Of a stretch of DNA of 64,000 bases, positions 4,111 through 28,453 are shown one piece after another (positions within the stretch are counted from its first letter, which is position 1; each line of letters begins with the position of its first letter). Where the stretch lies: positions 20,687,762 through 20,751,761 of the forward strand of contig CM049887.1 in assembly GCA_027474245.1 (NCBI GenBank), written 5' to 3'. The notes beneath the pieces are model-generated. The model saw only the letters and a program-made list of their open reading frames with translations, was not told the DNA's origin and ran no database searches. The DNA is from Spheniscus humboldti. Taxonomy: Eukaryota. Both the position numbers and the translations under genes were made by a program.

Positions 4111-4261
4111 GAGACTGTAACCCTGCAGATACATGCAGACCTGTAACTCCTCCTGTTTGCTCCCCATGTGGCATGCACCAGCATATAGGAACTCCAAAGA
4201 GGTACTTGGTCATGCTGATTTAGTGGTTTAGTTCAATCTTTGGTCTGATCCTGTAAGGCTA

Positions 4262-4872: not shown

Positions 4873-6061
4873 CAGTACAGCTACTCTTATAAACTGGTGC
4901 TCTGAGCTTTTACCTTTTCAAGGTCAATATTGTAGGTAGTTACCATAAAATCATAGGCAATAGGTAGGGAAGGAACATTTTAAGGTCATGTCCAACACCT
5001 TACTCTAAGCCAGGGTCAAATATTGTTCCTGAGAGATGTTTTTTGAATATATTCTTAAGGTGTGCAGTAGTTTCAAATATCAATTATCTCATTAAGTGCT
5101 TATCTCTCCGTAACATTTGAACACTTTTCTATACTATTTAACCTAACTAGTCTTTGCTTCAGCTAAAGTCCAAACTTTGTTCACCTAAAGCTCCCAGAAG
5201 GAGCTTCTATTCCTTCTTCAGTGAACATGGAGGGCAGTCTATTGACTTCTTCCTTTCTGATATCTTTTATATATTCCAAGACAACCCATCTCACTGTTAT
5301 TCACGTTCCTTTAATTTTCTTTTCATTGGCTATGCTTTCCTGTCCCCTGACAAGTCTGGCTGCTTTCCCTGGAACACTATCCAACCAGTCCACCTTCTTC
5401 TTTACATGCTTCCCCAAAACTGGCATAATAGAGCAGTGAGGTCTGCCAAACAGAAAAAGTACACTAAGTATCTTTCAGATGATGCTTGCCTTGTTCACAA
5501 TAACATACTGTTATGGACTCCCATTTACTTTGCGACTTCTAAACTACAGAATTTCAACATCCTTTCATAGAACATACACAGGCCCAGTTTACATCTTAGT
5601 TGAGGACATCCACAACACAATGTCTGATGGAAGAAAGTGGCACTAATGGTCTTGGGACATGACCTTCCCTCCTAACAACATCTGAAAAAGGCTGCCACTC
5701 AGATAACAGGTGGGTTAGCAGTCACAGAGGAGATATGGCAAAGGCAGGTGAGGATGTGTTACTTCTATACAGCAAAGCATTTGTCTTTCCCAGAAACCTA
5801 TAGCACCATTAAGCATCCAACCCTGAAGACTTCCTGCCTTTCTCTGAAGTGAAGGTGAAACTATCACCTTGCATGAACACAGTGTAGAATATCTATTATC
5901 TTCTATGTTATTGTTGAAGATAAAGGCTGCAAGAGCCACCCCTGTGAAATAAACCCTGTATGTCCTCACGTGTTTGTCACAAATTAGCGCAAACAACTTG
6001 TCATTATGAATAACCTGCTTTTTGCATGACTCCTTACTGATGAGGCAGTTCCTCTGTTTCT

Positions 6062-6658
6062 TTCTGTGCTGGTTTTGGTTGGGGTAGAGTTAATTTTCTT
6101 CACAGTAGCTAGTATGGGGCTATGTTTTGGATTTGTGCTGGAAACAGTGTTGATAATACAGGGATGTTTTCGTTACTGCTGAGCAGTGCTTACTCAGAGT
6201 CAAGGCCTTTTCTGCATCTCACACCACCCCACCAGCGAGTAGGCTGGGGGTGCACAAGAAGTTGGGAGGGGACGCAGCCGGGACAGCTGAACCCAGCAAC
6301 CAAAGGGATATTCCATACCATATGACGTCATGCTCAGCATATAAAGCTGGGGGGAAGAAGAAGGAAGGGGGGGACGTTCGGAGTGATGGCATTTTGTCTT
6401 CCCAAGTAACCGTTACGTGTGATGGAGCCCTGCTTTCCTGGAGATGGCTGAACACCTGCCTGCCCATGGGAAGGAGTGAATTAATTCCTTGTTTTGCTTT
6501 GCTTGCGTGCACAGCTTTTGCTTTATCTATTAAACTATCTTTATCTCAACCCATGAGTTTTCTCACTTTTACCCTTCTGATTCTCTCCCCCATCCTGCTG
6601 GGGGAAGTGAGTGAGCAGCTGTGTGGTGTTCAGCTGGCTGCTGCGTTAAACCATGACA
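6062..6658 (-). repeat. LTR-like interspersed repeat, copy B, inverted relative to copy A (roughly 85-90% identical)
   Basis: The reverse complement of 6540-6625 equals 4290-4385 with few mismatches. The GACGTCATATGG core is present at 6318-6332. The spacer between the two arms is ~1.19 kb. Confidence 0.55.
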
Positions 6659-9235
6659 CTTTCAAAGAGAAAATGCGTTCAGTCGCTCTACTTTCTCTGG
6701 CCCAAACTCCCACTAATTCAGGCTAAGAGCAATGTGAATCACAGACCTTGTATCACTCACTCAGTAGCATGCAGTGATCATGTAGTTTCCCAAATGGGAG
6801 AAGCCAAGGGGACGCCTTTGATACAAAGGCAGGTTCACACTAGAAGAAAATGCATGGAAGTGGTGCTCCTTACTTCAAGGGTTTCAAGCACAAGAACTGA
6901 CAAAAACCAAGGATGTAACAACATCTCTTGAACTTTGTTTAAAAAGGTCTTCAAGTGGCTTTGTTTATTAAGTAGATCGAGTTTATGAGACCAGAGGGCA
7001 AGATAAATATTTAAAAGTATAGAAATGTATATAGCTCCATAGGAGCTGTCAAAAGCTTCTGTTCCCACATGCATATGGGCATAGGAATTGTTTTATGGAA
7101 GTGCTACTGCCACTGTCTTCTACTAGCCTTCTGGAAGTGTAGCACTTCTGAAAACCAGACATGTCTAGGCTATTTTTAACATGGTAGATTAATTACATTA
7201 AATTAGGTCACCTTGTCATTTAATGATCATTTTCACTTCATCCTTTGATGCAGCATATATCTCAAACTTTCCTTCTGGGCAGAAGCTCAGATGAGTATTA
7301 GCATTATAGTCAGAGCAAGGATAAAAGAAATAAATAAAGGGGAATGTCAGCTACATTTGGATTCTGAAGGGAATTACGAATATTACAAAGACACTGTATT
7401 ATTCAAGCCTGGAACCTGGAACTGAGTAGCTCTGTTCCCCCTAATGATTAGGTAGGTGACCAAGGTAAGATGTTTACAAATTCAGGGGATCTTGGAGGGA
7501 AATCCTTCTATGAAATTAGGTCCTTCGCTCCCTCTAGTTTACTCTTTCCAATAAGAGCTATTACAGACTGCCAAAGTCTTATTATTTATTATCAGCCACC
7601 TGCAGATTTCTCTGTTGTGGACACAAAAAAACCCCAAAGCTAATTTTAAAGTATTACAGTTGATATTTTATCCTAGGAAGAGAACAGACAGCAATATCCA
7701 TCAGTCTTTAAATCCCCTTGTTTACTGTACCACTAGACTTTATGTAATGTTGTTTTTCTTCCTGAAATGCGTCTGCCAGTGATATGAAATGATCGCAATG
7801 TAATATCCTAAATGTTTTCATCGTGTGTAATTATTTATTTTCATGCCATTCTGAAATCCTAGGCAGATTGCCAACTCGATGATCATGTTTTCCCCCCACA
7901 AAATACTTAACAGACAAGAGACAAAAGCCTTAGAAGGATCAGAAATAGAAATGTTTACATAACCTGCCACTTGAATCATGAGAAAGCAAATGCTATATCT
8001 TATTGGAAAAACACAAACAAGCTTTTCTTGTCCATGGTTTTTTATTAATTGTTTGCCATAAACTTTTATCAATTAATTACAGTAATAATTACAAACAGAA
8101 ATTACAATAAAACAAAGAAACAAAGAAAATAAGTAAAAGCCAAGCTGACTGAACTAATTTGTACCATCTTTGCAACACCTGGCAAAAGGCCGACATGTAA
8201 TTCCAGTTAATGGTATTAATTTAATTGAATGCCTCTAGAACTGCAGTTATAGTAATTCAATTCATGGCAATCTGCAAATAAATTTACAGTGTAGGCCCTA
8301 GTTTTTAAACTGGATGGAGAGAAACCAGTAATAGCATTGCAATCCCTTTTATTTTTTTTTTAAAGTAAGATATTATGTGAATCTTTCAAAAGATAATGTT
8401 CAGTAAATTCTCATACCAGATGGACAATTCTGAAGCCTGCCATCAGGATAAAAACACATGACTTCAGGAGCATGGGGATGGTCTCTTTAATACAGCAGCA
8501 TGAAAAATGCACTTTTAGCTACTCTGCTACAAGAAAGATACCCTGTAAGTATGTTCCCTGTGGTCAGATTATTTTACCGTTTGGGTTGAATTAATTCGAC
8601 TTTGAAAAGTCAGTTGCTGCATGAGCATAAAATGAAACCTTTGCTTTTTTCCTAGGGACTGAGAGTTCAGGCACTCTTGGCACTTCTGGACACTTCTTCA
8701 AAGTTTCACTTGCAGTAAACAATTGCACTTTGGTCTTCTCTCAGTCGTGCTTGAAAGCATTAATAAATCCCAAACCCAGGACATGGCTAATATGCATGAA
8801 CAGAATGCAAGAGAACTTTACAGGTTGGAGAGAAGAGAAAACTCTTCCAGACACATTACTAGATAGCAGAATCATTTGGACGGGATTCATCTCAGTGAAA
8901 GGTTGTAATGTAGATGTCTCGATCTCAGCTAGACTCTCCAAGTTCCCTTTATGCTCAATAGAGAAATATAGGCACTTGTAAGTGTGATTCATCTGTTTTG
9001 CTTTAAACATCTCCATGAGAATGCAAAGGCTGGTATTCTAAAAGTGCCTATTCCTCTTCATTAATTACAAGAGGGTGGTCAGATCCCCGTTGCAAAGATC
9101 CAGGAATCCATATGCTTATGAACTGACCCTTGAGGTGACATAGCAAATGCCTGTTATGGTTGCAGACATGATAGTTCTTCATCACAAGAAGCAGAGAGCT
9201 GGTTTTCTCCACTTCTCTGGGTCCCATGTCATTCT

Positions 9236-9290
9236 TGTCAGCTTATTCACAAGTAATGGTTAGGAAAGTCAGCTTATTCACAAGTAGGGC
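9236..9290. repeat. Local tandem duplication, ~32-bp period (GTCAGCTTATTCACAAGTA x2)
   Basis: GTCAGCTTATTCACAAGTAATGGTTAGGAAAGTCAGCTTATTCACAAGTAGGG. Confidence 0.8.
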
Positions 9291-10015
9291 TAAACAAGGG
9301 CTGAAACTGCACTCACGGAGTGTTTGCAGGGAACCAGCCCCACCTAGAAAATGTTATTCTGCATGGTCTTCTGGCCCTGGCTTTCTTTAGATGGTGTCAG
9401 CTGGGTGACAGGAGGGAGAAGAATAAGTTAGCCAGACACAACATGTTTTCAAACCTTTTCTTGTGATGTCTTTGGAAATCTTCCAAGAAGAATCCAGTGA
9501 AACCATGTTGCTGTTTTGCCATCTTCACTTCTTCCCAGCCTGAGAGAACTGTTATAATGGTGAGCAACATAGCTTAACAATATTCTGTATAAGCTTTGGA
9601 ACTCCTTTTGAATCTGTACCTTTTAACAATACTACAGGAAACCTGGAAAATACAATGTTTTTCTTAGCCTCAAGAATTAGTAGAACTTATGGGCTCTCCT
9701 CAGTCCTAAGAAGAGCTTCTACTGCTACATCAGCAGAAAACAAAAAACAAGGTAAATAAAACCAGGTAAAATCTTCAGCAGAGTATTTTGGGCTGGGATG
9801 AATACACTTTTTATCAAGCTTTCTCTCCTTAAGTCCTTTCTTCCCACCAACACTTTCACAAACACCATAGCTCTTTTCTTCTACATTCTCAAGTAATCTC
9901 CCTTTAAGTCCACACCCAGAAGCTGCTGAACCAACCTGTCTTACTTAATGACATTCCTCAACTGCAAACTCTACACAGAACCCCATCTGAGAGGGATGTT
10001 TTTTTAAAAGTGCTT

Positions 10016-10046
10016 GACAAAAACAAACAAACAAACAAACAAACAT
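10016..10046. repeat. (CAAA)n microsatellite, ~6 units
   Basis: AAACAAACAAACAAACAAACAAACA. Confidence 0.9.
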
Positions 10047-13000
10047 ACACTTTCAAACCAACCTGTAGGCTATTTCCTGGACTCATTAGCAACTCCAGGA
10101 TAAGAACAACTTGATTTGGGCTTCTAAACATGTGTCCAGGACTCTTGGACCTATGACCTGCTTGGAAAGACCAAAAACAACTGGCCAGGGATGAAGTGAT
10201 CAACTTTGCCTGGAAATGTGACTGAGCTCCCCTTTGTAAATACATAAAATACACTCAGAGGAATTTCTAGCATTTCTGATTCTATCCGAGTATTTTCCAT
10301 TATTTTAATTGAAGTCTGCTTGAAAAGTTTGGATTTGTTTTTCTCCTTGTTCCAGCCACTGCTCTACTGCTCCAATCTGGCTATGTACATCGTTCAGTTT
10401 AGAAGAACAGGTTTCACATTTTCCATTGAGAACTCCAGTGATTCCTGGAATATATGTAATTTACAAGGAAGAGCTTCCACACATTATTTCAGCCTGAAAA
10501 GTGTGACTGAAGAAATGGAGAAAGCAACATGGAGAAAAAAATCCAGCAAAGCCCTTCCTTCACAGAAGACAAACAGACACTTGGAAATGCTCAAGTTTTT
10601 TGTCCCTTAATTAATACATTTCTGGTTCTACATTAATACCTTCTGGTTCTTATGTTACTTAGAAGGAATGAACAACCATGCCTGTCCATGTTCTTACAGA
10701 AAACTCTATCATATAAGCTGTTCTTCAGCAACATCCATCCTAAGGGTTATAGCCCATGTAAGCCTTTTCCTATGGAAATCTCTGCATATTTCTAATAATT
10801 CACAGTGATTTTTATCTCCACCTTCAAATGCAAAGAACAAAAGTGAATGCTCTTGTAAGTGATTTGGAGTCATTTTTCCTTACATGATTATCAACCTCAA
10901 TTTTATGCTCAGCATTATATGAATGTACTAAAAAATAGCTGTTTCACCAATAGAAGTTATTAACTACATATTTCAATTATTATTCCAGAAAAAAATCAGA
11001 AAGACGGATAAGTACATAAGAAGCAGCCAAGGTAAACCAAAAGACTTCACATTCATGATATTTTCTAGTATTTTGAAAGGAAGTGAAACTTAAAATACAG
11101 ATTTTTTTTTTGATTCAACAAAAGCTCTGGGTGTATTAAATCTCATATGCTGTATACATAGCAACAACAGTTTACACTTTCTCAAATAGCAGATGTGCAC
11201 CCAAAAAAATGAACAATACAAAGATAATTTCTGGAAACAGTAGGTACAAGAGGCATACAATCATAGCTTTCTTTGGGACCACAAACATTGTGGTTCTTGG
11301 ATTTTTAATATTATACCTTGTGTAGAGAGTGATAGATTTAAAATTAAAATACTCACAGTCCTGGGAATGTGCCCCACTTGCTTAGCAGTCTCTTTAAATT
11401 CAGATTCTCCAGTTGTCATTGATTCCATTCCTTTTTCTTTATGCATGAAGAACACAAAAACCTTAAGACATAGAGTACCTTCTAGTAAGATACTTAAATA
11501 TCTTTCCTAGAATAGGCAAAGTTAATTTGATAGTAATTACAATGCCAGGGATTGGAATGGGTGTGCCACAGGGCGGTAATCCTGTTCATCTTAAACATCG
11601 CTTTTATCAGTAAAGCAAAAGAATTCAGAACCAACGGTATGTGATATTTCTCATGGGCATTACAACCCCTAATAACTGTCCAACTCCTTTGTCTACAGTT
11701 TTGGACAAAACATCACAAAACAACCAAAATAGACATGGGGAATTGATGACCAAGTAACTAATTAGCTCAAATCATACAATGAGTTAGTGGAGGATTACGG
11801 TACTAAACAGTCGTTTCATCAGTTTCAATATCCAAGCTCATAACCATCAGACAAAGTGTTATTAACCATAGGAATAATCCATACTCTCCCTTCAACAATC
11901 CCCATTTTCAATGCATTATGAAGAATTCTAACTAGTAAATCCTCTAAATGCCTTCTCAAGAAATCAGCTATTTTCTATATATTGGTTATAAAAGACAAAG
12001 AAGCTAGCGGTTTTGTCTTACAGAGAGGTCCAGTAAGGGACACCAAAGCTGAGCAGCACAGTGGGATGCTGAGAGGCTTATACAGACACACATGGTAAAC
12101 TGTATTTTCAACAATCTGCTGTGAGGGGAATCTCATTGCATATTTGCATCATGAACTGCTGAAACTTCATGTACAGGCACTGAAAGAATACTGCTGATCT
12201 TCTCACTTTCATCTTGCACAGGTGATTCCAACAAATTTTCTAATAAATTTGGTTCTTAACAAAAGAAGATGATTTGTTGGGAGTACTCTTTATCATAGGA
12301 CCAGATCACTGCATTTATCTCAGCATCCATCATGGCATACAGTGCATAGCTGTTGACTTAGAAAGACCCCAAAGGAGAACTGAGAGAAGAAATGTCTTCT
12401 CTGTCCATTTCAGGTGAGGCATTCTGGCTACCCATAGCCTTTGCAAACAAACTTCAATGTAGGTCATGAGCCAAATCTCCCTTCAGCACGTTTTCCATAT
12501 GTAATCTCTATGGATACAAGAAGAGACCATGCCTGTTTTCCAGAGAGGTTATGCCTTTCCTAAGCCTTCACATCCACCACCTCCATTTGTGACTGGCAAA
12601 TAATTTTCATCTTTGTCCCTGAATAATAAACATACTACAGCAAGGGATGCAGTTGCAATATGCGTATAATTACCTTGGATCCAGTTAGTTCGGACAGTAA
12701 TACATGAAAAGACGGCACTGCAAGCCTCAATGTGCATCGTGAAGCTTACTGGGGAGTCTGGTTGCCCAGGTTACCACGTCTTCACTCTCTTGCAAACAAG
12801 CTCCATAAAACATAGCTGGAGTTGTTCTTTCCATGCATGAGCAGAAATATGGCAGTCAAAACCACATGCAGCCTTTACAGAACAGTGTATTATACTACTT
12901 TGTGCAATATTATATTCCACAGACTACAGAATCGCTATTAATATAGTCTATAATCTCATTTGGTTTCTGAAAGCAGTGGCACAGAGAGCCATTCTGTTTT

Positions 13001-16000
13001 TTTCCTGGAGAGGTTATAGCAATTCTGGACTACACAAGCATGTATGCAGTTGAAATATTTGCTTCCAAAAAGCACTGCTTAGCATTTGTCAGTATTGGGT
13101 TCACGTGTTATTCACATACTGCTATTCCTTAGGCTCTAATAAAGTATCCTGAAGGCTCCATGTACCTTCAGTATTTTTGAAGCTGTGTTTTAAAATTGCC
13201 TAAGCAATAAAGGATGAGCTTAAAGTTACATTACATGATAGGGTAAAAACAAATAACAAGCCCGCTCACCAGCATGTTCCTCTCAGCTATGTGTTTAGAC
13301 CCTAAAAACCTAGACTTTTTTTCCCCCTGTTGTACTAATTAAACAATAATTTATGCTCCAAAGATTTGGACTAGAAAGAATATTTCATGAAGAAGAAATT
13401 CAGATGGAATTTCATCTTCAACGAGCCTAACAGTGGCTGATCTACAACACGCATTTCGGAAAGATGTCAACATCTTTTATACATCTCCATACACACAAAT
13501 ATAATTGAAAGACCGCCAAACAGACTTCAGTGCCTACACAGAGCCTTCAGTCAGACTCCGCAGGATATCGCAGTCTATCTCTTTGATACTAATTTCTGCA
13601 TTAGGGCCCAAATCTGTGCCTTGCTACAGACATACTGAGTTTCAGAGGTTGAAAGCTGAAGTCAGATGAAGATTTTCTGCTTGTTTAACAAGTCTTTATT
13701 TCCAGGTATCCCTATTTATACTATGTGGTCAAGGTGCATCGTAGCCTTTTCAATAGTAAATTAAAATTGGGAATACATGCTCAGCCTTGCTACTGGCTGG
13801 ACCTGGAGAGATGGAGCTGCAACAGCCTCACCTCTGTCAGGCTCCCAGATTCGGCAACTGAGCACAACGGACAAGGCTAACTCACAGTCCAACCTCTGGC
13901 TTCTGTTTCCCTACATGCTAAAAAAAGACAGAATTTAAACAAAAAGTACTGTGCTATGCTCATAGTAAAAAGCTTGTAAGAGAAATTTTAAAGGATGAAA
14001 GCTTGATTCAAGCATTAAAGGTGTCTTATAAAAATCACAGCAACATTTTAAATGGTTTTATACCTATGAATTTTCATGTCATATTTTTACTATTAATATA
14101 CCTAAAGACACACTCAGCAAATTTGTTACACTGTGCTTCAGACAGAAAAAAGATTCTGTAGAGGAAAGAAAGTAGTGTGAGTTCGGCACCAAGGCCACAG
14201 AAGTACCTAGGACCGAACTGTCCACCATTACATTTACAGATAGTTTGTTGGTTTTAACCAACAGTGGATAAGAAAAAAGTATCTGGCATACTTTGCAACT
14301 AATTTCATTAGTGGAAAATTAGATAAATAATAGCTACTGAATATAAGCTCCCAATAACCACTACCATGCAAGGACATAAATATTATGAGCTAGGAACTGT
14401 GGGTGAGGAGTTGAGATTAAGTACAACATTTTCTTCAGGTATCAGTGCCTCTCTGTTAGACCACCAGAATGTTTTGAGATTACTTGTCTAACTCCTGTAA
14501 ACCTTAGAAACAGGATAATTCAGCTGTTAATGCTACACAATCACTGATGAAATCATACTTCCTATACACCTGCACATCCCATACCTATGAACTTTTCTGA
14601 ATAGTTGTATTTGGCCCTGTCTGCAGTAACACAACGGGGTCTCCTTCCTCCTCTGAACACACATGCAGCCCCTCACATAACATTTAGGGGAAAACTATTT
14701 TTCTGCTTAGCATGTAATCACATGGCCATACTACAGAAAAAAATCCAATAGTGATTACATACCAAATAACCAAGATATACATTTGCAGAATCTATCATTC
14801 TAAATGACAAAAAAAAACAAAGGGAAAAAAAAAACAGAACTAAACCAAAACAAACCAAAACACTGGCCAGTTTTAGGGCATTCGGTCATTAAATTTTGAA
14901 AGCAGAAATTCTTGCTGGAAAAAGGCAAGATGATGAGAAAGGAGGATGCATTTGAAGAAATAACAACTGCTACATGTTCCTGGCTAGAAAGATGATCTAG
15001 ACAATATATATGTTTTCAACCTACATTTTACTATGATTTTAAATACAACTACATTGTTCACACCAAAACCAACAGTCTGTTCAATATTATCTTTCTCCTA
15101 CAGTGTACTTTCTACCACAGACAAAGCTAGTGAAATGGCTGAGATCACACTTGTCTAAGTAGAAGCCAGCAGGACGAGTGAGTCCACCCAGGGTTAATCC
15201 ACGCTGCCATCTCGTGGTTATCCACGTTAGAAACACTGATTTTTACATTGCCTGCATTTTAAATACTATCGTATAAAATTATGAAACATCAGTAATGTTC
15301 TCTGAGTAGCTAATGGAACAGACAGGAGGTGTTCCTTCTTCTCTGGAAAATTACTGTTGTCTTTTCAGAAATAATAAACCAAGTTGCCGGTTTTGTCTTC
15401 AGATTTTGAGAGTGGTATGAGCGCAAAACTGAAAGGGTGCAGTGTATGTTTATTTATTCTTTCATGTATAGGCTGACAGAACTACAAACAAATATAACAT
15501 ATGCATGATATATAACATAACATGTATGTATATCTTTTATAATTCTTTGGAAAGGCATAGAGAACAGAATCTGTAGCTATATTTTTATGAATTTTGGCAA
15601 ATTCATAAGCAGAAAATGGTAACATGAGCATTTGTTGCTATTGTTCAGTTATTTATTAAATGGAGCTAAAGTTGAAATAAAAGCAAGGATGAGCTGTCTT
15701 CTCACCAAAGAGCTAATTAGGCCTAATTAGGCTTCTCATCAAAGAGCTAGTTAGGCTACTTTTTAGACAACTTGGTACACTGCTGGTTTAAAATTACATT
15801 CAGACAATGTTGCCTGTGGAGCATGGGGTAGCTGAAGATGGGGCAATGATAATGTGCCATAGAACCAGTGTCTAACTTGAGTCTGTAAGTTTTCATGTCA
15901 AGGAGAAATAAGAATTTCAGTTCCCAGACGTCTTTTGGCAGTATTTTGTAGGACTCCATTGCAGGTTGTTTCTGAAAAACACACTACTGATAACGGGAAG

Positions 16001-16984
16001 TTCTATTATATGTGCGAGTTCAGCCTGGTTCATACCGATTTTTAGTCTCACAAACAGGGTTTCCTACAAACTTTCCATAAGCCAAACCACACCAGAAGGA
16101 ACCAGACTGGGCATGAGGCACAGCTGTAAAATTTGGCAACAGATCTCCACAAGGATTCTATACAAAGTCGAGTCTAATCAGGTCCTGGTTAACAACAAGG
16201 GCTTCTGAGGAAAATTATTTACAAGCTGAATCAGTTTGAAGATAACTTCTGGAAAGTTCTGCCCCTCACAACCAAATCATGCACATTCAAGTGTTGATAA
16301 ACGAAACCAATGCAAGCTTGCCTGATTTGGGTATTTTACCAAAAAGTAGGTGAGGACCTAGCTCCATAGAATTGGCTAATTTTTGAACTTTACCGCTCCT
16401 TTCTTCATGCTTTCTTCCCCATTACTCCTGAAATTCTTCTGCCCTTCCAGCAGACAGGACTGTAGTCTTCCCCTTTGGCTCTTTTCTCAACAGTTACTGT
16501 TTGCCTTGGCCACACCACTGAAGTACTCCCTATTGTTAAGAAAACCTAGAATAGAGTTTGTGTGACCTTTCGAACTCTGCCTTGTTATCTGAGTCAAAAT
16601 CCCAGCCTAACACTTAGTACATTTAAAACAAAAGGTTTGGGGTAGAACCTAGTTTTACTGTGTGAACAGTACAAAAATATGAATAATCTAGGTTTTGTTA
16701 GGAAACTTGCCTCTTGGAAAGCTGGCTCAGTTCATGATTTGGCAAGTGTCTGAAAGTTGCAGGGGAAAATCAGTGTATTTTTAATCTTAAAATTTAACTG
16801 CATTTTACTAGAGGTGATTTAAACACAAATCTGGAGAGTATCATGCTAAATTTATGACAGCCAAAACAGAAGCGGTAAAACACTGCAAAAACATCTCTTA
16901 GGTGTTCTGCAAATAATGAGAATGCATGTAGAATAAAGTAACCCCAAAGCATGGACTTAATGGCTTCTAGCCCAGGAAACACCC

Positions 16985-17420
16985 TGCCTTCCCAACAGGA
17001 CCTCTGGCCTCCCGGCAGGGGCGAGGAGGGGTCAGGCTAGGCAGCGCCTCGCCGATCGCTGCAGCCCAGCCGCGCCTCAGGGTGGCGAAAGCTGTCCGCG
17101 CGGGCCACAGCAACCACCGCCCTCCCCCTCCCGCCTCGCCGTGATTGGCTGCGATGGGAACAAGGGCCGACGAAGCGCCCGGTGATTGGGGGTTGGGGTG
17201 GCTGTTTTGGCGGGCGATGGGCGCCGTGAGGCTGTCGTTCTTCCCTCGTGACGAGGGGAGTTGTGTCCCGTCCCGTCCCGTCCCGTCCCCGGCGGTCTCG
17301 GTATGTCCCTGCTTCAGCCTCTTCACCGGCGGCCTCGTGGCACTTGCAGCGGCAGTGGTGCTCTGGGCGCCGGCTGGGGGGAAAGAGCACCTCTCCCATA
17401 GAGTAGCAAAAAAAATAAAA
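16985..17420 (+). promoter_or_regulatory. RNF17: CpG island / putative RNF17 core promoter
   Basis: A sharp rise in GC and CpG density sits in otherwise AT-rich DNA. Two inverted CCAAT boxes (ATTGG) lie at 17144-17148 and 17185-17189, and a (TCCCG/CCGTC)x5 repeat at 17266-17290. The island lies ~400-600 bp upstream of the first RNF17-like spliced exon. Confidence 0.6.
17150..17300 (+). other. RNF17: Candidate non-coding exon 1 (5'UTR) of RNF17, ending at the GTATGT donor at 17301
   Basis: A donor-like GGTCTCG|GTATGTCC lies inside the CpG island. If this exon were read in frame 0 into the next exon it would hit a TGA, so it is presumed non-coding. The 5' boundary (TSS) is unknown. Confidence 0.3.
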
Positions 17421-17789
17421 TAAAAAGCCAGATAGCAGGCCTTAAGGAAAGGAGTCGGGCTCAGTATACATGGTGCATCGCAAACAGGGCGTGAACTTAC
17501 AGTGTTGAGATACTGCAGAAAAGAGAAATAATCATACTGATACATAATAAGGAAGGAGGTCTGAAGACTAGTAGTGGTGTCTCCTGCAGTCTGGTACTGG
17601 TAAGGTTAGGGGTGGAGTAGCTGGATAGTGCAAAACAGGCTAGTGTTTTGCTGCATTTAAAGGATTTCGCTTTTTAAGGAAAAAATAGATGCATGTTTCC
17701 TATGAATTTTATGTCTTCATTTTACTCTGTGCCAAGTGATGTAAGTAACCTGCAGCGTTTGCTCAAGTGATGAAATGTGTATGTTGTAG

Positions 17790-17899
17790 AGAATTTGTCA
17801 CCTTTTAAAGTCAGACACCATCATGAGTAGAAAGAAAGAGTTCTCCTTGGTGGATGACAGTAATGAAGAGCTTAATAGAAGGAAAATGAAAGCTGTAAG
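17790..17899 (+). CDS. RNF17: Candidate exon 2 with putative start codon ATG at 17822 (MSRKKEFSLVDDSNEELNRRENESCK), donor GT at 17900
   Basis: Acceptor TGTTGTAG| at 17788-89 and donor AAG|GTATGT give 26 open codons after the ATG. The Kozak context is weak (C at -3), and the peptide does not resemble the mammalian RNF17 N-terminus, so this may instead be 5'UTR or a uORF. Confidence 0.35.
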
Positions 17900-19362
17900 G
17901 TATGTGAATGGTGAGATTACTCCAGTGACTTTATAATTTTTAAGTTCTGAAAATATAACTATCAGGCAATAGTATTGAGGAAATGTAGAAAATAATATTT
18001 GTATTCTGCAGTGTTGTAAGTGAGTCCATTCTTATGTATGTGTGTAAAACATGCAGTTTGTGGAAAGTTTTAGCATTTGGAGTAGGTTCAGGGAAAAAGA
18101 CATTTTAAATGCATCGTAGGATGTTGTCAAATACTGAGTTATTAGGCTACCAATATCTCGTATTGATCTGTGTGTATATTTTACAAGTAAATGAATGACT
18201 GTTGATCTAGTCAATATATTTTTAGTTAAATAACTATAGAATGAATGTGATGAAAATTGATTATATAACCATCTATTAATGCTGGTTCTAGTTACCTTAA
18301 ATGCTGGTTCTCCATACCTAAAAGCTCTAGTGCCACCTTTACAGATGATGAATTCAGTATCCTAGAGGTAAATTGCTTCTGTTCCAGTTAAAAGGGGGTA
18401 ACAAAATTTTTGTGTGTGTGGTGGTGTGTGTTTCATTACCTGCGCCACCTTCTGCATAAAGTCATTTGGTAAAAAGTGGGCAAGCTTAGTTCTGAGGGAG
18501 CTGGAAGTCAGAATTCATGGTTGGTTGATATCCCTAATGATCTTAAACCTTTACTTTTACTTCTGAAGGCAATGTCTTAAGATACTAGAAGAGGATTTTA
18601 TAGAACCAAATTGGAGAAACAGTGACTTGTGTCATATGTCAAAAGCTATGAGTATGAAAGGTAAGGCTTTGGATCTTGACTTTTATTTCCAGCAGTTTTG
18701 TGGTGTGCAGTATTCACTGTTAATTTATATTTTATATGGCCTGTTAAAGACAACAGATGGGCTGCCGGATTTGATTAACGCATTGTTTGTTTACTACATT
18801 TCTAGTACTCGGCAAGAATGACCAATACCTTTCTTTTCTCCTCCTGCTGTTTTTCTTGACGAAACTACTGGAAAGTTTGTTTTAAAAGAAACCTCACTTT
18901 TCTGGGATTTTCTGCTTGATTATCTTTTTTCCAAGAATTGTAAAATTGTGTTGAGTACATAGTATTTATGGATGCTTTATGAAACATTTTTTTTCCTGTC
19001 CAATAGGTACACATTTTGAATGTGTGTTTTCTTTTGGTTTTTTGCCTTCCCTTTCATGTATTTATCCTCTCCTGAATGTAGCAGCAACCTAATATAGCTA
19101 ATCATGCAGATAATACCCTAATCATTAAATGCAAGTAAGTTTTCCTAATTCCCAGATAACTTCTGTATCTATTTATCTGGACTTCTATTCCTAGTTTTCA
19201 AATTTTGTCACTACAGAAGTCAATGTCCAAATTCCTGTTGACCTGATGAATACTATGTAGAAAATTACTCCAGTGATCATGTATTCCTCTGTTTCATTAA
19301 GATGCCCACCAGTTAACAACATTTGCAGTTTCCTATGCAGTTTTCTATGCTTGTTTTTACAG

Positions 19363-19421
19363 CGTTGCATGATGATGTGAAGGATGAAGACACTGATTTT
19401 TTTTGTTTGTCTTCTACAGAA
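19363..19421 (+). CDS. Weak candidate micro-exon (LHDDVKDEDTDFFCLSSTE)
   Basis: Acceptor TTTTTACAG| and a strong GTAAGT donor; only one frame is open. The phase (2+57 nt) does not connect to the flanking candidates without an undiscovered exon on each side. Confidence 0.15.
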
Positions 19422-21939
19422 GTAAGTTGGTCTAAAGCTTTCTGTTCAGTAGTCATTGTGGTGATCTGAAATAGTGATATTACAGCATCTTTTGCATTTT
19501 CGTTGAAAGTGATTAAAGCAAGGTCAGATCCTCTCTGAGGTAAGGGCCTGCACTTTATAACCATCTGCTCCCCAGCAGGTCTTAGCTACATTGCGTAATG
19601 AGAAATGCTAGCAATGTAGTGCGCATCTGATGTCCAAAGTCTGGTTTTAGGACAGTTTAATTCACAGTTCTCATTAGTGCCCCATGTGGCCAACTCTGTT
19701 CCACCCTCTCATCTGCACATGATGTAAAGAAAGCAAGTGGTGCATATGCACCTTTTTTAAAAAAAAACAAAACTCTTTCCCTGTCAGCTCCCAAATAAAA
19801 GGACTGAAAAGATTTTTTTTTTAAAAAAAAACAGCTTCACTTTGCATGGTAGTGCATAACTTAAGAATATATTTCTGTTTCTGCGTTTAAAGAAAAAAAA
19901 ATTGCTCTGCTTGTGAATCTTTTCTGTGTTATGACATGCTAATGCGATTTGTTTCACAGAAATCTGTATTTTGGACAAACGTTAAGTGCTTTTTTTAATT
20001 TTTAATTTATGCAAAAGATAGGATGTGGCCATTCTGTTTTTTCTGTTGTGGAATTCAGATTTAGCTTTTATTGCAAAATACAAATAAGTCTTTGGAATTA
20101 AGCCCCGTCATTAAACTTTATTGAAAAAAATAACTTGTAATCAGGTTCACTAATGCAGTGTGTTAGAAGTTTTGCATAATAGTGGGAAAAATGGTAAGAG
20201 CAAACAGAAAATCAGTATTCCTTTTACTAGAAACACACTTCATTTACCACAAAGATACACTGATGGCTACAGAGCTTTGGCTTGGAAGCTGTTTTCTTAT
20301 ACTTCTTTGTTGCTCAATTGAACAGCACTTGCTTTGAAGCTTGGTCTCATTGAAATGAGGGTGAGGGGGTACTGAAGATGAAAACAGGCTTATAGAACAT
20401 TTTTTTCACTGGGACTTGGATTTAGCCCTGTATTTGAACTTGCTTTACTTCTTCCCTCTGAATTTAGACCAAAACTGATTTTAAACTTGGGCTGTGCAGT
20501 GGCAACTCACAAAGGCTAGCAAGGTAAGCCTTTATTAACTCAACTGTTTTTTATGTGTCTAAACACATCTAAATGCCAGACTGGGGGAGGACTTGACTGA
20601 GCAAGCATTTCCAGCCATTTTTGTTGGGCTGACTTTTTTTTTTTTTAAATATGTTCTTTAAACTTTACTAATGTGTTCTCAGTATGGGCGTCTAGTACTG
20701 TGAGAAAACAACTTGCTTGACACGAGTACAAATGACGCGTTATTGAAAAGCAACAAGAAACAGATTGTTTGGCTTGAAAATGTTTGGAACTGAAAGTTTT
20801 AAACACTGTGGTAACTCCCTGATAAGGGTTCAGAGGGAGAGTAGAGAACTCCTGAAATGCCAGGCTGTGGTAGGAAGGACTATATCATTGAAACGCCTCC
20901 TTCCCCCCATCGCCCTGCTGCTCCCATTGTACTTTCTGCTTAGATAACCAGTCACAGCTATAAAGATTAGATGCCAGCAACATTCTGTGGTATTGTCATA
21001 TCTAAATTACATTAACTTGCTTATTTGTCTAGCCTATGTGAACTTGAAGGAAGTCTTAAAGTGGATGTCTTTCCCCCCACTGCTCTTGCTATGGCATTAT
21101 ATGCTCATCACAAATGAGAACCGGGCCAGATAATTCTTACAGATGTGTTACGTAAGGAATCTGTTCTATACATACCTGTTCTGTAAGGGAGGTATAGGAA
21201 ATTTATCTTCTGAGATTGGTCCACGTAAAGTGCATCGCTAACACTGCCCAAGGTAAAATAGAAACTTAGGATTTCATGTATGGCTGTCAGTCTCTGCAGC
21301 AGTGTTCTCCAAGTCCTCTCACAGTCCCATCAGAAACAACAAACAGCACAGGAAGAACAACACAGTGCTGCCTTCCTGTAATTAGGCTAGTTTATGCAGA
21401 CTGCTTTTGTGAGAGTCTTGACTGCTATTTGGATCATGTGTACTTTGCAGAAGAGCAGGCATGGGTGACCATACGGCAGAATTTAAGAGTCTTCCTAACA
21501 GGTTGTCAGTAGATGGTTTTAGTATAATCTGTCATGTATCATGGATTTTAACAGCCTAATCAATATCTGATGGGATATCTAAAGGAAAATACTTGAGCAA
21601 CAAATGAAAAATGAATCCTGGAATGTTAATAGTCATGCATTTTACTCTCATTGAGGATAAAAATCACTACCACCTACTAAGGTTTTGTTCAGCCTTGCCA
21701 AAATTGTCAGATGAAAAATAGTTACTGAAGATTAATTTTAAGATGATGCTAGTAGAAAGGAAACTTTTTGAAAAATGAGGTATCTGTAGTATATCACAGT
21801 GTGAAGAAGTCTACTGTTTTAAAAATAGGTGTGTATGTATTTAATGACATTTTGAAAAACGGTGTCTGAAGTATTTGTGGGAAGTTTGATATTTTATTTA
21901 AAATGTGTAGGTTTTTTCCTTAGAAGTTTTGTTTTGCAG

Positions 21940-22039
21940 GCCCTTTAGTCACAGTACTGAAGAGAAAAATGCTCAGTACCCAGTTTCTTCAAATGGTGGG
22001 CTGAGGGATAAACCAGCTCTAGCTCCGTCAGCAGACATG
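21940..22039 (+). CDS. RNF17: RNF17 N-terminal region exon (..PFSHSTEEKNAQYPVSSNGGLRDKPALAPSADM)
   Basis: Acceptor TTTTGCAG| at 21938-39 (an alternative is TTAG| at 21922-23, in the same frame) and donor ATG|GTGTGT. The translation resembles mouse ..NQGHYPVDGFIEEDSSLEALPPK. It starts in phase 2 and ends in phase 0. Confidence 0.45.
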
Positions 22040-24255
22040 GTGTGTTAATATGGAATTTCCTTATATTCTCACTCGTTATTTTTGTATATGCATAGTTAAT
22101 ATTGCGCTTCTTAAAACACAAAAACTTGCAGCCTTAATAGTTATGTGCTGTTGTGCCATCTTATCATAGAATTGATGTGCAGCTACAGTGTTAATAAAAT
22201 AACTTGACAAAATGAATGCTGCTCGAACCCAACCAAATCATAGGTGAGGAGGGCTATTGTATTCAGCTGGCTGTGAAACTGTGTATTTTGAATTCAGCTT
22301 TTTAAAAAACACCTGAGGCTTCACAATGTTTGGGTTTGGGGCTTTTCTATTTCTTTCTAAAGTTGAGAGAACTGCAAGGCTCGTGCAACACATCTTTAAA
22401 GTAGTCATTCAGGGCAACAAGGTTGTTAGACAAATGGATTTCTCTTGAAACACTCCATTAAGTTTTCTAGTCTTATCTTTCTGAATGAGGTTTGTGAAGT
22501 CTTAGATCAGGTGAACTAATGTGGATATTTTAAAATGACAGAATAAAATGGAAATGAATGATACATCCTGTGCCAGTCCTGTTTCCTTCTATGGAGATTG
22601 TCCTGTACAGTTACTTTGAAAGAATCGTAACTTGCAAACGTCTGTCTTGGTTTCTTAGGTAGTTTTGTTGTAGTGGCCGTTAAAGTTCGAAAATGTTTAT
22701 TGTTTTTTTTAACTTTTTTTTGAAAAGCCTATTTGAAATAAAGCCATGTCATGTTATCTTAAACTTCAGTATATTACTGTTGACAAAATATTAAAGGAAA
22801 CAGCCTGAGGTTATCTTCAAAGTGTCTTGAGTTTGAGGTCATAAGTAATATTTTGATGGCAGTCACCTGTTGAGAGAATATTTTCTTTTTTTGGAGAAAG
22901 TTGTTGAGAACGACCTCCTGTGAAAACCCACATTTATTGAGATCCTAGTCCAACTGCTACTTCTGTTTCTTAAGTTTTTTTCAGTCTTTTGTTTTGTGGC
23001 TGGTGATTACTAGATCTTTGGCAATATCGTTTCTTAAATCATTGAATGAGTATATCCATGTCTTTTGAGTTTTGGAAGGATTTTTATTACTGCATCATTG
23101 ATCATAATGAGAACCACGAAGTACAGAGGGAGCAATGTAATTCCATGACATTTTTACCTATTATGTCTCCTTGCATCTGCTCAAAACAGAGTGGGAATAG
23201 TTGTCATAGGGAAGTATTCCTAACACAGTTAACATCCAAGTCATAATAGGAGGAGGGTTTTCTTTCCTTTTTCTGCTCCTAGGAAGGAGACATAATCAGT
23301 CTGAGATGTTCAGATACATGAATTGGAAAGTTCTAGAGATGAAGGTGACAACAAACATCTTTAATAAACTCCATAATGATGTGTGTGACTAACAGGTCTC
23401 TGGCAGCACTTCCTTTCACTTACACCAGTGTCTGGTCAGAGGCAGAACTATTTCAGGTTTTTGTAAGCTTTAATTTCTCTCTAGTTTGTGTTTGTTCTCC
23501 TTAACGCTAGTGAGGAAACCTTTAGAAATTGGAGATGTTTGCATGTTAGTTAAGTTGCCTTTTGGCAAGGTGAACTGGTTGCCTCATAGTGACAGACTTA
23601 GACAGCACCATCCCTGACTTTTCAGGGCATCCCCAGCTTATGATGTTCTCATTTTGTTTTTATCAAAATACCAGCACTCTAACCAGTACTTCTAACTCTA
23701 GCTTTAGTAGTGCCAGTGAGAAAATAAGACATTTCTGTATGTACATTTGCCTCTGTGTCAATTCATATGCAAGTATTTTTTTGGCTTTTCTTGCATCAAC
23801 ATAACACTGGGAGCTTATTACATTTTTTCTTTTTTGTTGGTTTTCCCCAAATGATATTCGTAAATATTTTCCTTTTTTCTAGGCTGCAGTATTCCCATTC
23901 TTCAATCTAGCGTGTTTTCTTTCCTCTGTATTAGTAACTTTATTTTGATTTTCCTTCTTGTACTATCTTTTCCTTTTTTTTGTGTGTGTATGTGTCTGTG
24001 CAAATAAATTGCATGTATTTAACAAACAAAATTTAGAATCCATGTTTCAGAAATACTACAATGTAAATCTTCTCAGTGTAATTCAGGTGAGCTAAGTATT
24101 TTGGACCTGTTCGCAGCTATAGAGCTGCTCAGAGCCTTACACAGATCATCAGTCACCCACATCAAGTACCTCTGTCAAAATGGCAAATGAGTATAGCCCA
24201 TCTTGTCTTCCAGTCATACAAGCAACTTTATATTCATTGGCAAATCTTTCCCCAG

Positions 24256-24336
24256 GACAGCAAAACTATGGAAGATATTGATGAAGCTTTGTGCATAGCT
24301 ATTTGTAACCTCAGCCACTTACATGATGCAGACGAG
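24256..24336 (+). CDS. RNF17: RNF17 exon (DSKTMEDIDEALCIAICNLSHLHDADE)
   Basis: Acceptor CTTTCCCCAG| and donor GAG|GTGGGT, 27 codons, phase 0/0. It aligns to human [27 protein letters not shown]. An alternative in-frame upstream acceptor at 24212-13 would add SYKQLYIHWQIFPQ. Confidence 0.75.
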
Positions 24337-25394
24337 GTGGGTGAAAATAAGTTAAATAAATCATGAAATATTAAACCCTATCCTTGATTGAAGCTTTTTG
24401 TTATGAGTAGTCATGCATTAACATGCTATTTAAACATGCTTTTACTCCCTTCATTTTGACATCTCTTCTGTCCTTCAACTGTTTGTGCTATTTCTGTGAA
24501 TCTACAGCTTTAAACTCCAGGCTATAGTCTGGAGTTTACAGAATATAGGAGTAGTCTGTAAAGGAGTACATGAGCCTGTGCATAATTTAAAGTTACCAGG
24601 TCAATCCATGTATTTAGCAGAACCATATATAAGCCAGTCTTTAAGTACTAAGCTTGTGGTTCCTTGGATCAGGGTAAAATTAGCATTTGTTTTTGCTCTA
24701 GCAACTATGCTAACTTCCTAGTTTTCAGATGCCTCTTTCTGGATTTAAAGGTGGAAAAGAAATTATATGGGCAACCGAAGTAATAATTTTAACAGAAACA
24801 ATATGCAAAACGTGTAAAATAAATAATTTTTTATGCACAGTATAAAATACAGGAAGAATCCTAAAATACTGGATAATGCTGTCAATAGGTTTTACTGAGT
24901 AACCTATGAACTTCGTCAATGATAATTATTTTATTTAAACTTTAACTCTTATAAAATGTGCTGTGGAAAAGCTTGCAGTTCTGTCTTTGACATTTGTTTA
25001 CATTTTACATGTATTCTAAGATACCCAGGCATAGAAGTGTTTAATGATCAAAAAGCTTACAGCAAATTCATTCTAGTAAATGCAGCATGAAGTGTCCTTA
25101 AAACCTGTTTCCATTCCCTTTCTAACTTGTTTTGTTGCAGTGGCCGATCTGTCAGTTAAGCAAAGTTACGTTAAATACCTAATTCATGTACTAATAGCAT
25201 CTTGTAAAAACCTACCATTTCAGCAGCTCTAATACAATAACTCTACTCGTGCATACAACTGTGGTCTTCCAACAGCTTTTCGACAAAGATTGAGAATTGC
25301 CACAGCAGTGTTGCATTACTGAGATTTTTTTTCCATAGTCTCTTCATTAAATGTAACTATACCGACAAAACTGTTGCTTAGCCAGAGGAAGAAT

Positions 25395-25881: not shown

Positions 25882-25982
25882 ATGCTGAAATACTTGGACT
25901 TGAAAGTGAAGCAGGAAGGAGACAAAGTTGCAGAAACTGTAGACAGAACGTTTGATGAACTTATTACTTCTCTCCTGTCAAG
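25882..25982 (+). CDS. RNF17: RNF17 exon (MLKYLDLKVKQEGDKVAETVDRTFDELITSLLSR)
   Basis: Acceptor AAATAG| and donor TCAAG|GTAGTA. It aligns to human [35 protein letters not shown]. It ends with 2 nt, and the next exon supplies 1. Confidence 0.8.
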
Positions 25983-26455: not shown

Positions 26456-26839
26456 TGTATCAAAGCTTAGGATTCTAGAAGAGCCTGCGAGAGGGGGACC
26501 TTATACCTTAATAGACTGAATTGCAAAATCCAACGGTTTAGTTTTCAGTTGGATGTGTATGGAAATATCAGGAAGCTTGAATGGAGGAGTGCTTTAAACA
26601 TTTAATAAAAAGTTTCTCCAAACAAAGTGGCTTTTCGGTGTGAACTCTTAACTTTTGTGGTTCTTCCTACTATTAAGTGAGCTTTCCATGCTTTTCACTG
26701 TTGGAGGAAAATGATACTTCTGTATGAGATGTATCCACTTTGTATTGTGGTATAACTGGCAATTGTGTGTTAGAGTTGAAGTTTGAATCTGTACGCCTGA
26801 GTGCTTATTAAATTCTGAAAAGTAATGTTTTTAATATAG

Positions 26840-27011
26840 GAAGAGGAAGTTGTGTGCAGAATTAGTGAAGAGCATCAACAACTACAGTGCTGGTATTGCA
26901 AAAGCTAAGGAAGTCATTGAAGAGAAGAAAAAGTGCTTGATTGGTGCCATTAGGATTGCAAAGGAATTAAAAATTACACCTTCTGTAAGAACCTATTGTG
27001 ATCTTGCTCAG
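26840..27011 (+). CDS. RNF17: RNF17 exon (KRKLCAELVKSINNYSAGIAKAKEVIEEKKKCLIGAIRIAKELKITPSVRTYCDLAQ)
   Basis: Acceptor AATATAG| and donor CAG|GTAGTT. It shows strong similarity to human KKNLCEEFARTTDDYLSNLIKAKSYIEEKKNNLNAAMNIARALQLSPSLRTYCDLNQ. The open frame continues 13 codons past the donor (VVTFLHC..), so a slightly later donor is possible. Confidence 0.85.
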
Positions 27012-28453
27012 GTAGTTACATTCTTGCACTGTGAAATAATTTATTTTTAATGAATACATTCAAATTTGGATTGAAAGTTTCTGTGACCTGTCTTTCAGTT
27101 TGCTGACTTCAATATTGAGATATTTGCAGTAATGCATTCTTACCCCACCTCTGCACACACCCCCAGTTTATATTTGGTCTTGGTCACAAATTAGTGTCTG
27201 GTGACTGACATGAAACAAAAAAGATGGTCCTTGCTTTGAAGAGCTTGCCATCTGAAACAGCAAATGGAGGGGGAGGACAGGAAAACTGTGACACAGTACT
27301 GATCAGTGAAAGTACAGTGTTTTCAGCACTTTGGAAGCCTCTCAAGCCTTTCCCATTCTAGAGCTCTCCAAACTTCTCACTGAACTACTCCAGCATTAAT
27401 AGCCACACTCTCCTGATCCTCTTGGTCCCAGGCCTTTACTTCCATTCTTCCTCCCCATCATATCTGCTGCTCATAGAAACTCATGCTGCCTGCCATGCTG
27501 TATCAGACCAAAGGTCCATCCTGTGAAGTCTCCTGTCTCTGACAACAGAGAGGAAAAGATGCTTGGAAGAATCTAAGAACCTGGGCACTTAGTGAGTATA
27601 GGAGGTTGAAGGTTAAGGATTTTATAATCAGTAGGATACATCACGGTCATTACACTGAGTAAACATTACCTCATTGTGTCATAAGCTTGTGTAACACTTC
27701 CTTGAATGTCCTCATAATGCTTGTGGCAGTGTGTATGTGGGTGTACCTGTGTGCATTATATGTATGTATTCATATGCAGTGGCAGTGAGTTTTATTATTT
27801 AAAATAATAAATTAACACCTCATTTTAATATTTAAAATGAGGTGTTTATAAAATAGCTCCCTCTGTTCTTTGTAAATGTGCTACCCAGTTATTTCATTTG
27901 GAGCCTTTGTAGTCCTTGTGTTGAGAAAAATAATGAATAACTGGTCTTGTCGTTCTTTGAAGTAGTGTGATTTTTTTTAATTTTTTTTTTTTAAGACTGT
28001 CATGTTCTCTGCATCCAGTTGTCACTTTCCATATGAAGAAACTTAAGTCTTTCTCATCTGACCCAGAAAAGAAGTCTGATCCCTCCTTTTTTCTGTCATT
28101 TGCCTCCATCTTGCCCAATGTGACTTTTGGGAGCTGGCACCCACCGCTGTCCTCCCATAGGCCTACCTTCTTACTTAGAAGTCACCTGCTGAGTAGCTGT
28201 TCATACAAAAGGAAAATCTGACTCCTGCTTCTATTAACATGCTAACAATACAAAATCCCCAACCATTAGGTCTTAGCAATGTAAGAAGACATAATTGAGA
28301 ATTGGCTATTGGCAGTTAATGAGTAAACTCTTGGGGGTTTTTTCTGTAAAATTAAAGATGTCATACTCTGGCTTTGTCATGTTGTAGATAATAAGTGCCT
28401 GCGTAATCTGCTTTTTGTATAGTAGAAGCTAAGACTGTACTTCTTAATTTCAG

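Follow-up and report, generated by a model that had tools for sequence, protein, structure and literature searches.

Probable loss of the RING-coding sequence from the avian RNF17/TDRD4 gene

Mouse RNF17 is known as a Tudor scaffold for PIWI proteins in the granules of germ cells. To our knowledge, which includes no search for RING-specific mutants, it is unclear what role the RNF17 RING plays in the pathway of PIWI-interacting RNAs (piRNAs). The mouse protein consists of an E3-ligase domain along with five Tudors (PMC4511215), and RNF17/TDRD4 and fly Qin are both described as E3-ligase (RING) proteins with five Tudors (PMC4511215, PMC12147562). RNF17 restrains ping-pong piRNA amplification and has a role in spermiogenesis (PMC9114089). 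Here we analysed a 64,000-nucleotide stretch of Spheniscus humboldti DNA (contig CM049887.1, positions 20,687,762 to 20,751,761 of the forward strand; hereafter the window), which carries an RNF17/TDRD4 orthologue on its plus strand; the gene starts at a CpG island (17.0-17.4 kb) and extends past 58 kb. An initial annotation of the interval 17790-24336 had recognised no RING-encoding exon and left the N-terminus open, reasoning that the avian gene lacks a RING, that it has a very divergent one, or that small RING exons had escaped the reading. We find that this interval very probably holds the first six coding exons of avian RNF17/TDRD4, with the RING-coding sequence lost in evolution.

The gene had been correctly named RNF17 in the initial annotation, as judged by collinear tblastn matches, by the database homologues of its translated exons, which are RNF17 proteins, and by two window-encoded TUDOR domains in Pfam (PF00567; 43.7 and 78.4 bits, cut-off 23). 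With Athene noctua RNF17 (XP_074788274.1, residues 36-1376) as query, tblastn gave ~29 collinear blocks of 55-94% identity across 18.6-58.0 kb, and collinearity with this owl protein points to further Tudor-bearing exons downstream. A human probe (the 1,064 N-terminal residues) matched collinear exons from 25.9 kb on, which represent human residues 172-1064, and had zero tblastn matches in the window for residues 1-171. Between the N-terminus and the first Tudor, the helical/coiled-coil region EEIDEAL...TYCDL (exons F and G and 26838-27017) is kept relative to mammals. The Colinus and Willisornis genomic loci are collinear with the window, whose species is neoavian. Around the 5' exons (16.9-26.1 kb), the aligned DNA of owl, antbird (Willisornis) and bobwhite (Colinus) is 81%, 75% and 71% identical to the window, respectively. 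The window as a whole has no assembly gaps, and between promoter and exon G none occur in the owl locus or in Colinus (stretch 1397-14361). The N-terminal RING, after which the gene is named, belongs to the canonical architecture of RNF17, yet it is not what defines orthology, which holds without it.

To search for a RING, we aligned the N-terminal part of RNF17 across teleosts, sturgeon, bichir, coelacanth, newt, frogs, painted turtle and mammals, and built profiles of the whole RING and of its two exon-wise halves. All eight ligands (C-x2-C...C-G-H-x2-C-x2-C...C-x2-C) are conserved in this alignment, from teleosts to mammals. Exon 2 in mammalian genomic read-through open reading frames (ORFs), used as a positive control, scored 38-58 bits. 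The best score over six frames was 9.9 bits in the window and the Colinus and Willisornis loci, and 12.4 bits in the gap-free loci of Athene noctua (73 kb, 10 kb upstream included) and Anolis sagrei (86 kb). No RING-encoding ORF was found in 17790-24336 or in the whole 64-kb window on either strand. The initial annotation had proposed a six-frame RING profile search, and this RNF17-specific version bears out its reading that no RING exon is recognisable; the same scans, with their positive controls, reject the idea that small RING exons were overlooked. In Pfam, the three plus-strand frames of 16900-24780 gave nothing at E <= 10, and the RING families had no match at E <= 10 to bird RNF17 N-termini.

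Simple motif counts agree with the profiles. The interval contains zero stop-free C-x2-C...C-x2-C pairs. Its single C-x2-C strings, 12 where block shuffles gave 6.7 +/- 2.6, are mildly in excess, and the interval is rich in TG. As had been noted initially, stop codons end the C-x2-C strings at ~18627 and within the (GT)n region; the first of these, TVTCVICQKL*, had been called tempting and is a wrong-frame reading of a real exon. A conserved intronic block at ~20030 that encodes GCGHSVF was also put down to chance, as its position is downstream of the post-RING exons and the profile gives it no score.

Comparison with the painted turtle indicates whether the domain is missing or divergent. By BLASTP, window residues 7-247 are collinear with residues 79-326 of painted-turtle RNF17 without rearrangement (48% identity, E 6e-60), and the segments encoded by exons B-E, which fall within this stretch, are common to turtle and birds. 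The turtle protein (Chrysemys picta bellii XP_042711080.2) has ~75 N-terminal residues with an intact RING, its eight ligands spanning C18...C67, and then continues TVNTNQGFYPVDDYVEEELYTRKLQAVKQSLQTLQDNPTRSYRGNNYLCHM; the start of the bird protein corresponds to the end of the turtle RING. This collinearity runs through turtle sequence past an intact RING, and the bird protein is therefore truncated rather than divergent. Mammalian exon boundaries, taken from genomic read-through ORFs, place the RING in exons 1-2: exon 1 comprises Met...C-x2-C...SG and exon 2 HHxxQCGHxFCxxCL...CPxCE, and exon 3 (VATTINTKQxYxPxDGYIKED...KLQPKK) is the equivalent of bird exon A. When the turtle is included in a MAFFT alignment, every bird N-terminus falls directly after the RING, and bird exons B-C are shared with the turtle and stand opposite only gaps in mammals. 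We rejected exon B (QCLKILEE...LCHM) as the decayed second half of a RING, a relic of CELCLLMTEE, since the turtle has a RING plus this segment. Judged from genomes and gene models, the absence of a RING from avian RNF17 is a real, lineage-specific domain loss and not a failure of reading. Of the possibilities raised initially, it is thus the lack of a RING that the bird models and gap-free loci support.

The N-terminal exon chain was derived by mapping the RING-less predicted RNF17 of Colinus virginianus onto the window, followed by a check of splice sites and phases (Table 1). All seven exons, A-G, are flanked by AG acceptors and GT donors; their phases are compatible, and joined they form a single open frame (MSRKKEFSLVDDSNEELNRRKMKAVRQCLKILEEDFIEPNWRNSDLCHMSKAMSMKALHDDVKDEDTDFFCLSSTETKTDFKLGLCSGNSQRLARPFSHSTEEKNAQYPVSSNGGLRDKPALAPSADMDSKTMEDIDEAL). 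The joined N-terminal product from exon A onward reads MSRKKEFSLVDDSNEELNRRKMKAVR followed by QCLKILEED…, and the 5' boundary of exon A lies at 17790, 17809 or 17813 (three AG acceptors). The start codon and every exon's ORF and splice sites are kept in the Colinus and Willisornis loci, and exons B-G are conserved blocks in a three-bird comparison. Exon B is present in the Willisornis and Athene models and is homologous to turtle residues 96-125, past the turtle RING; exon C sits within a block of up to 84% identity (50-nt windows) in all three other birds. A profile search of 1.8 billion representative proteins yielded full-length bird RNF17 models from Athene cunicularia, Buceros rhinoceros and Melospiza melodia. 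The RefSeq proteins of A. cunicularia and A. noctua are built of the same seven exons, and the Buceros and Melospiza models omit some. Word-indexed protein searches returned few vertebrate RNF17 proteins, none longer than 654 aa, and a turtle N-terminus query matched nothing in them.

On this gene model the N-terminus is resolved by comparison of sequences, save for the exact 5' exon and acceptor choice, and several details of the initial annotation change. Its one moderately supported exon between 17.9 and 24.2 kb, exon E, is real, and so are exon C and exons B and D, the last two of which it had missed. The segment 19363-19421, which had been set aside as phase-incompatible, is the genuine exon C and is in phase after exon B. 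The ATG had been placed at 17822 in a weak Kozak context (C at -3); the actual start codon lies one base further on and has A at -3 (17820), a good context, and a one-base slip likewise produced the exon-A peptide end ...NRRENESCK in place of ...NRRKMKAVR. Exon E had been likened to mouse GHYPVDGFIEEDSSLEALPPK, a segment (GHYPVDG) that matches exon A (FSLVDDSNEELNRRKMKAVR); exon E corresponds to mouse HSSSIHRNVSNPSAVM, directly before EEIDEAL. Mammalian queries do not recover the exons for the first ~125 residues, a gap that the turtle sequence bridges. Furthermore, a profile of mammalian N-termini (residues 1-150) had zero matches among the six-frame ORFs, true exons A-E included, because the divergence between mammals and birds is too great.

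Rates of substitution indicate that these exons are coding. The ratio of nonsynonymous to synonymous substitution rates (dN/dS) in exons A-E is 0.52 relative to Willisornis and 0.50 relative to Colinus, and in the downstream exons 0.48 and 0.52, respectively. The N-terminal exons are therefore coding and evolve as the rest of a fast-evolving gene does. More generally, dN/dS is ~0.5 across the N-terminal and Tudor-encoding exons (window 17.8-40.5 kb against Colinus and Willisornis), which marks the gene as fast-evolving in birds. An AlphaFold model of residues 1-264 predicts a helix at 12-34, disorder at 37-122 (predicted local distance difference test, pLDDT, <50) and a long helix at 127-234 (pLDDT 90-98). 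Residues 1-125 are modelled as helix plus disorder, with no RING or U-box fold (beta-hairpin, zinc-knuckle or zinc-finger-like element). We treat this model, made from a nine-sequence alignment and low in confidence across the disordered part, as supporting evidence only.

The introns also contain conserved sequence. Six blocks (19080-19149, 20030-20219, 20330-20389, 20770-20829, 22480-22689 and 24160-24209) are conserved in bobwhite, antbird and owl, with peak identities of 76-84% (50-nt windows), level with the coding exons, and no conserved ORF runs through them. A role in splicing or in regulation is conceivable.

Table 1 Features of the 5' part of RNF17 in the window. Positions are counted from the first nucleotide of the window; peptides in exon rows are those encoded by the exon.
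Feature	Position	Strand	Remarks
CpG-island promoter region	17000-17400	+	GC 0.70, CpG observed/expected 0.83; collinear with Colinus, Willisornis and Athene noctua promoter regions
Two GATTGG (inverted CCAAT-type) motifs	17143-17148, 17184-17189	+	~41 nt apart; spacing kept in all four birds
Possible exon 1 coding part	17154-17181	+	MGTRADEAP; donor G/GTGATT between 17181 and 17182; compare Athene noctua RefSeq model
Exon A	17790-17899	+	ATG 17823-17825; MSRKKEFSLVDDSNEELNRRKMKAV(R); orthologue of mammalian exon 3, directly after RING
Exon B	18569-18660	+	(R)QCLKILEEDFIEPNWRNSDLCHMSKAMSMK; tblastn with Colinus protein E 3e-4; AG/GT sites conserved
False lead TVTCVICQKL*	18604-18648	+	exon B, wrong frame; 6-7 bits (E 2-3) against RNF17 RING profile, chance level
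Exon C	19363-19421	+	(A)LHDDVKDEDTDFFCLSSTE; in phase with exon B
Exon D	20468-20523	+	TKTDFKLGLCSGNSQRLA; 94% protein identity to Athene noctua
Exon E	21940-22039	+	(R)PFSHSTEEKNAQYPVSSNGGLRDKPALAPSADM; mammalian counterpart segment directly precedes EEIDEAL
Exon F	24256-24336	+	DSKTMEDIDEALCIAICNLSHLHDADE; conserved long helix begins here
Exon G	25882-25982	+	MLKYLDLKVKQEGDKVAETVDRTFDELITSLLS; first exon a mammalian query detects; beyond interval 17790-24336

Upstream of exon A, the GATTGG pair is a putative promoter element. Its second motif lies only ~0.6 kb from the exon-A start codon. An ATG at 17154, between the two motifs, is found only in the window and Athene noctua and is missing from Colinus and Willisornis. 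The A. noctua RefSeq model translates this ATG as MGTVADEAL and splices from G/GTGATTGG, a donor that the second GATTGG motif overlaps, onto exon A. In the window the corresponding short exon is in frame with the main ORF through only one of the three candidate acceptors, between 17812 and 17813; through the acceptor between 17808 and 17809, 1 nt off that of the owl model, it is out of frame. An alternative long form, which joins the donor between 17300 and 17301 to the acceptor between 17789 and 17790, is in frame and not conserved. No candidate form of exon 1, short or long, encodes RING ligands. The CpG island also contains a perfect (GTCCC)5 microsatellite at 17265-17289, which reads VPSRPVPSP in one frame. 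EGSCVPSRPVPSPAVS from the CpG island, considered as a relic of turtle LCVGCSRRGTVVSQ, was rejected; it arises from this microsatellite, and its ORF is not conserved in the other birds.

The absence of the RING extends across the birds sampled. The same exon-A start Met is found in the window, Colinus, Willisornis, the two Athene species, Buceros and Melospiza, and none of them has a RING; besides the window species, these represent Galliformes (Colinus), Strigiformes (two Athene), Bucerotiformes (Buceros) and Passeriformes (Willisornis, Melospiza). A RING is present in teleosts, sturgeon, bichir, coelacanth, newt, several frogs, painted turtle and mammals. Outside birds, RNF17 was RING-less in Anolis sagrei, at the gap-free locus described above, and in a gecko fragment. 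Turtles are placed beside archosaurs in the accepted phylogeny; because the turtle keeps a RING that the squamates do not have, the squamate loss would be independent of the bird loss. We judge the chances to be about even that the RING was dropped independently at least twice in sauropsids, in birds and in squamates, and maybe also in Xenopus.

Among frogs, Xenopus tropicalis RNF17 isoforms X1 and X3 contain no C3HC4 motif, and Ascaphus, Mixophyes and Leptobrachium have all eight ligands. A Pelobates RNF17 fragment has Ser at the position of ligand C6 (CGHLLCAESS). The RING may be repeatedly eroding in tetrapods, or the models may be incomplete. In the zebra finch, the germline-restricted chromosome has been reported to carry an rnf17 paralogue (PMC6884545).

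These observations suggest a simple history. Most economically, deletion would have removed exon 2, together with the 3' part of ancestral exon 1 and most of the introns on either side. The CpG-island promoter is now ~0.6 kb upstream of exon A, the orthologue of mammalian exon 3. Translation would start at the Met at 17823 within exon A, with a non-conserved extension of no more than 12 residues from exon 1 ahead of it. The predicted product has no E3-ligase module and would consist of ~125 largely disordered residues, the long helix (modelled within residues 1-264) and then the Tudors. By analogy with the mouse protein, bird RNF17 presumably remains a Tudor scaffold for PIWI proteins in germ-cell granules.

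Several points weigh against a loss of the RING or restrict what can be said of it. With generic Pfam RING models, the RING of mammalian RNF17 itself is matched only weakly, at E 0.017-0.05 and under the gathering score; the Pfam negative by itself is therefore weak, and the argument depends on the custom profile. The upstream scan covered 17 kb of the window and, in the owl, 10 kb; an exon more than 17 kb upstream is formally possible. The bird gene models compared are computational predictions, and the transcription start, exon 1 and the exon-A acceptor given here are candidate assignments from genome sequence. Finally, the timing of the loss is only bounded, as the sample includes no crocodilians, palaeognaths or tuatara.

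The first alternative is that RING exons exist outside the sequence examined, behind a distant upstream alternative promoter or in GC-rich DNA missing from the assemblies. Bird assemblies tend to lose GC-rich first exons, the Willisornis locus has runs of N near the promoter, and exon 1 usage in the window has several candidate forms, all of which fit such a view. However, window, owl locus and Colinus stretch have no gaps between promoter and exon G, and neither the 17 kb upstream in the window nor the 10 kb in the owl gave a profile match. Furthermore, the mammalian RING core is encoded in exon 2, where the read-through flanks are rich in Phe, Leu and Ile, suggesting AT-rich DNA, and independent bird models begin in exon A or at the CpG island. 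We therefore consider this alternative very improbable.

It is very improbable that exons A-E are untranslated or decaying and that the protein has a later start, such as the exon-G Met (MLKYL...). In favour of this reading, disorder is predicted for the first ~125 residues, whose conservation relative to mammals is poor, and a dN/dS of ~0.5 is not strong constraint. Against it, three genomes and four further annotated proteins have an unbroken ORF across exons A-F, free of stops and frameshifts. The start Met and every splice phase are likewise conserved, dN/dS does not exceed that of the Tudor-encoding exons, and the segment keeps its 48% identity to the turtle.

Finally, a highly divergent RING or U-box-like domain without the Cys/His pattern is scarcely credible: MAFFT without the turtle does set QCLKILEE under mammalian CELCLLMTEE, so that two window Cys fit ligands C6 and C8, but with the turtle this segment aligns to QSLQTLQDN...YLCHM, ~30 residues past the intact turtle RING, the Cys residues of exon B vary among birds (RSRK and LYDM in Willisornis, SSHVN in Colinus), the AlphaFold model predicts only the helix at 12-34 and disorder at 37-122 without a beta-hairpin or zinc-knuckle, and Pfam RING families are absent at E <= 10. 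The very divergent RING offered in the initial annotation is thus rejected by turtle collinearity and the structural model, and loss of the RING-coding sequence remains our preferred reading.

The wider locus has further features. One criterion considered for the orthologue group was synteny, with CENPJ/CPAP convergent downstream of RNF17; the minus strand downstream of RNF17 carries a CPAP-domain gene in the loci of owl and anole, and the window ends before the 3' end of RNF17. Two copies of a CR1-type long interspersed nuclear element (LINE), inverted to each other, occupy RNF17 introns at 60560-62842 (plus strand) and 41552-42871 (minus strand) and explain the GC-rich patches of the window. 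The plus-strand copy has long ORFs of 256 and 482 aa, the latter matching Pfam RVT_1 at 121 bits, and the minus-strand copy is fragmented. Upstream of the gene, ORF segments at 4392-4744 (minus strand) and 6219-6726 (plus strand) have the motif QRD(V/I)PYHMTSCSA in common; the two probably represent one interspersed repeat in inverted orientation, perhaps a fragment of a long terminal repeat (LTR) or endogenous retrovirus (ERV). Rfam found zero RNA families in the window.

The loss of the RING in birds is already implicit in public RefSeq bird models, to which the window adds one more species. In the literature that we searched we found no statement that avian RNF17 lacks a RING. A whole vertebrate class retains the gene under one selective regime throughout (dN/dS ~0.5) without its RING, which points to the helical and Tudor parts as the seat of the conserved function; it also yields a concrete prediction for a RING-deletion allele in mouse. 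If the repeated losses in sauropsids are real, birds would represent a natural RING-deletion experiment: either ubiquitin-ligase activity is dispensable for the conserved germ-line role of RNF17/Qin-type proteins, or that role has been rewired in these lineages. Annotators, and pipelines that assign orthology by domain, should note the lack of a RING in avian 'RING finger protein 17'. By predicted domain content, bird RNF17 is a helical, Tudor-only scaffold.

Set beside the systems with which we began, the bird gene is orthologous to mammalian RNF17/TDRD4 (human Q9BXT8, mouse Q99MV7), with collinear exons from EEIDEAL on, a long helical region and multiple Tudors; germ-cell expression would be a further shared trait, by analogy. 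In mammals exons 1-2 encode the two parts of a C3HC4 RING, both of which are missing from the bird gene. Birds and turtle carry the exon B-C segment for which mammals have no aligned counterpart. Public avian models (Athene cunicularia XP_026713927.1, Athene noctua XP_074788274.1, Buceros rhinoceros XP_010131433.1 and those predicted for Colinus virginianus and Melospiza melodia) share the same Met and RING-less N-terminus, and the Athene noctua model adds MGTVADEALEDTI from the CpG-island exon. The invertebrate counterpart, Drosophila Qin/Kumo, is a multi-Tudor protein of the piRNA pathway (PMC4511215, PMC12147562) that is described with an E3-ligase (RING) domain; the bird protein has none, a contrast drawn from description and not from sequence. 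In domain content, bird RNF17 would resemble RING-less multi-Tudor scaffolds such as TDRD6 and TDRD1. These proteins are not its orthologues, however, and bird RNF17 retains the long helix and the Tudor order that are specific to RNF17.

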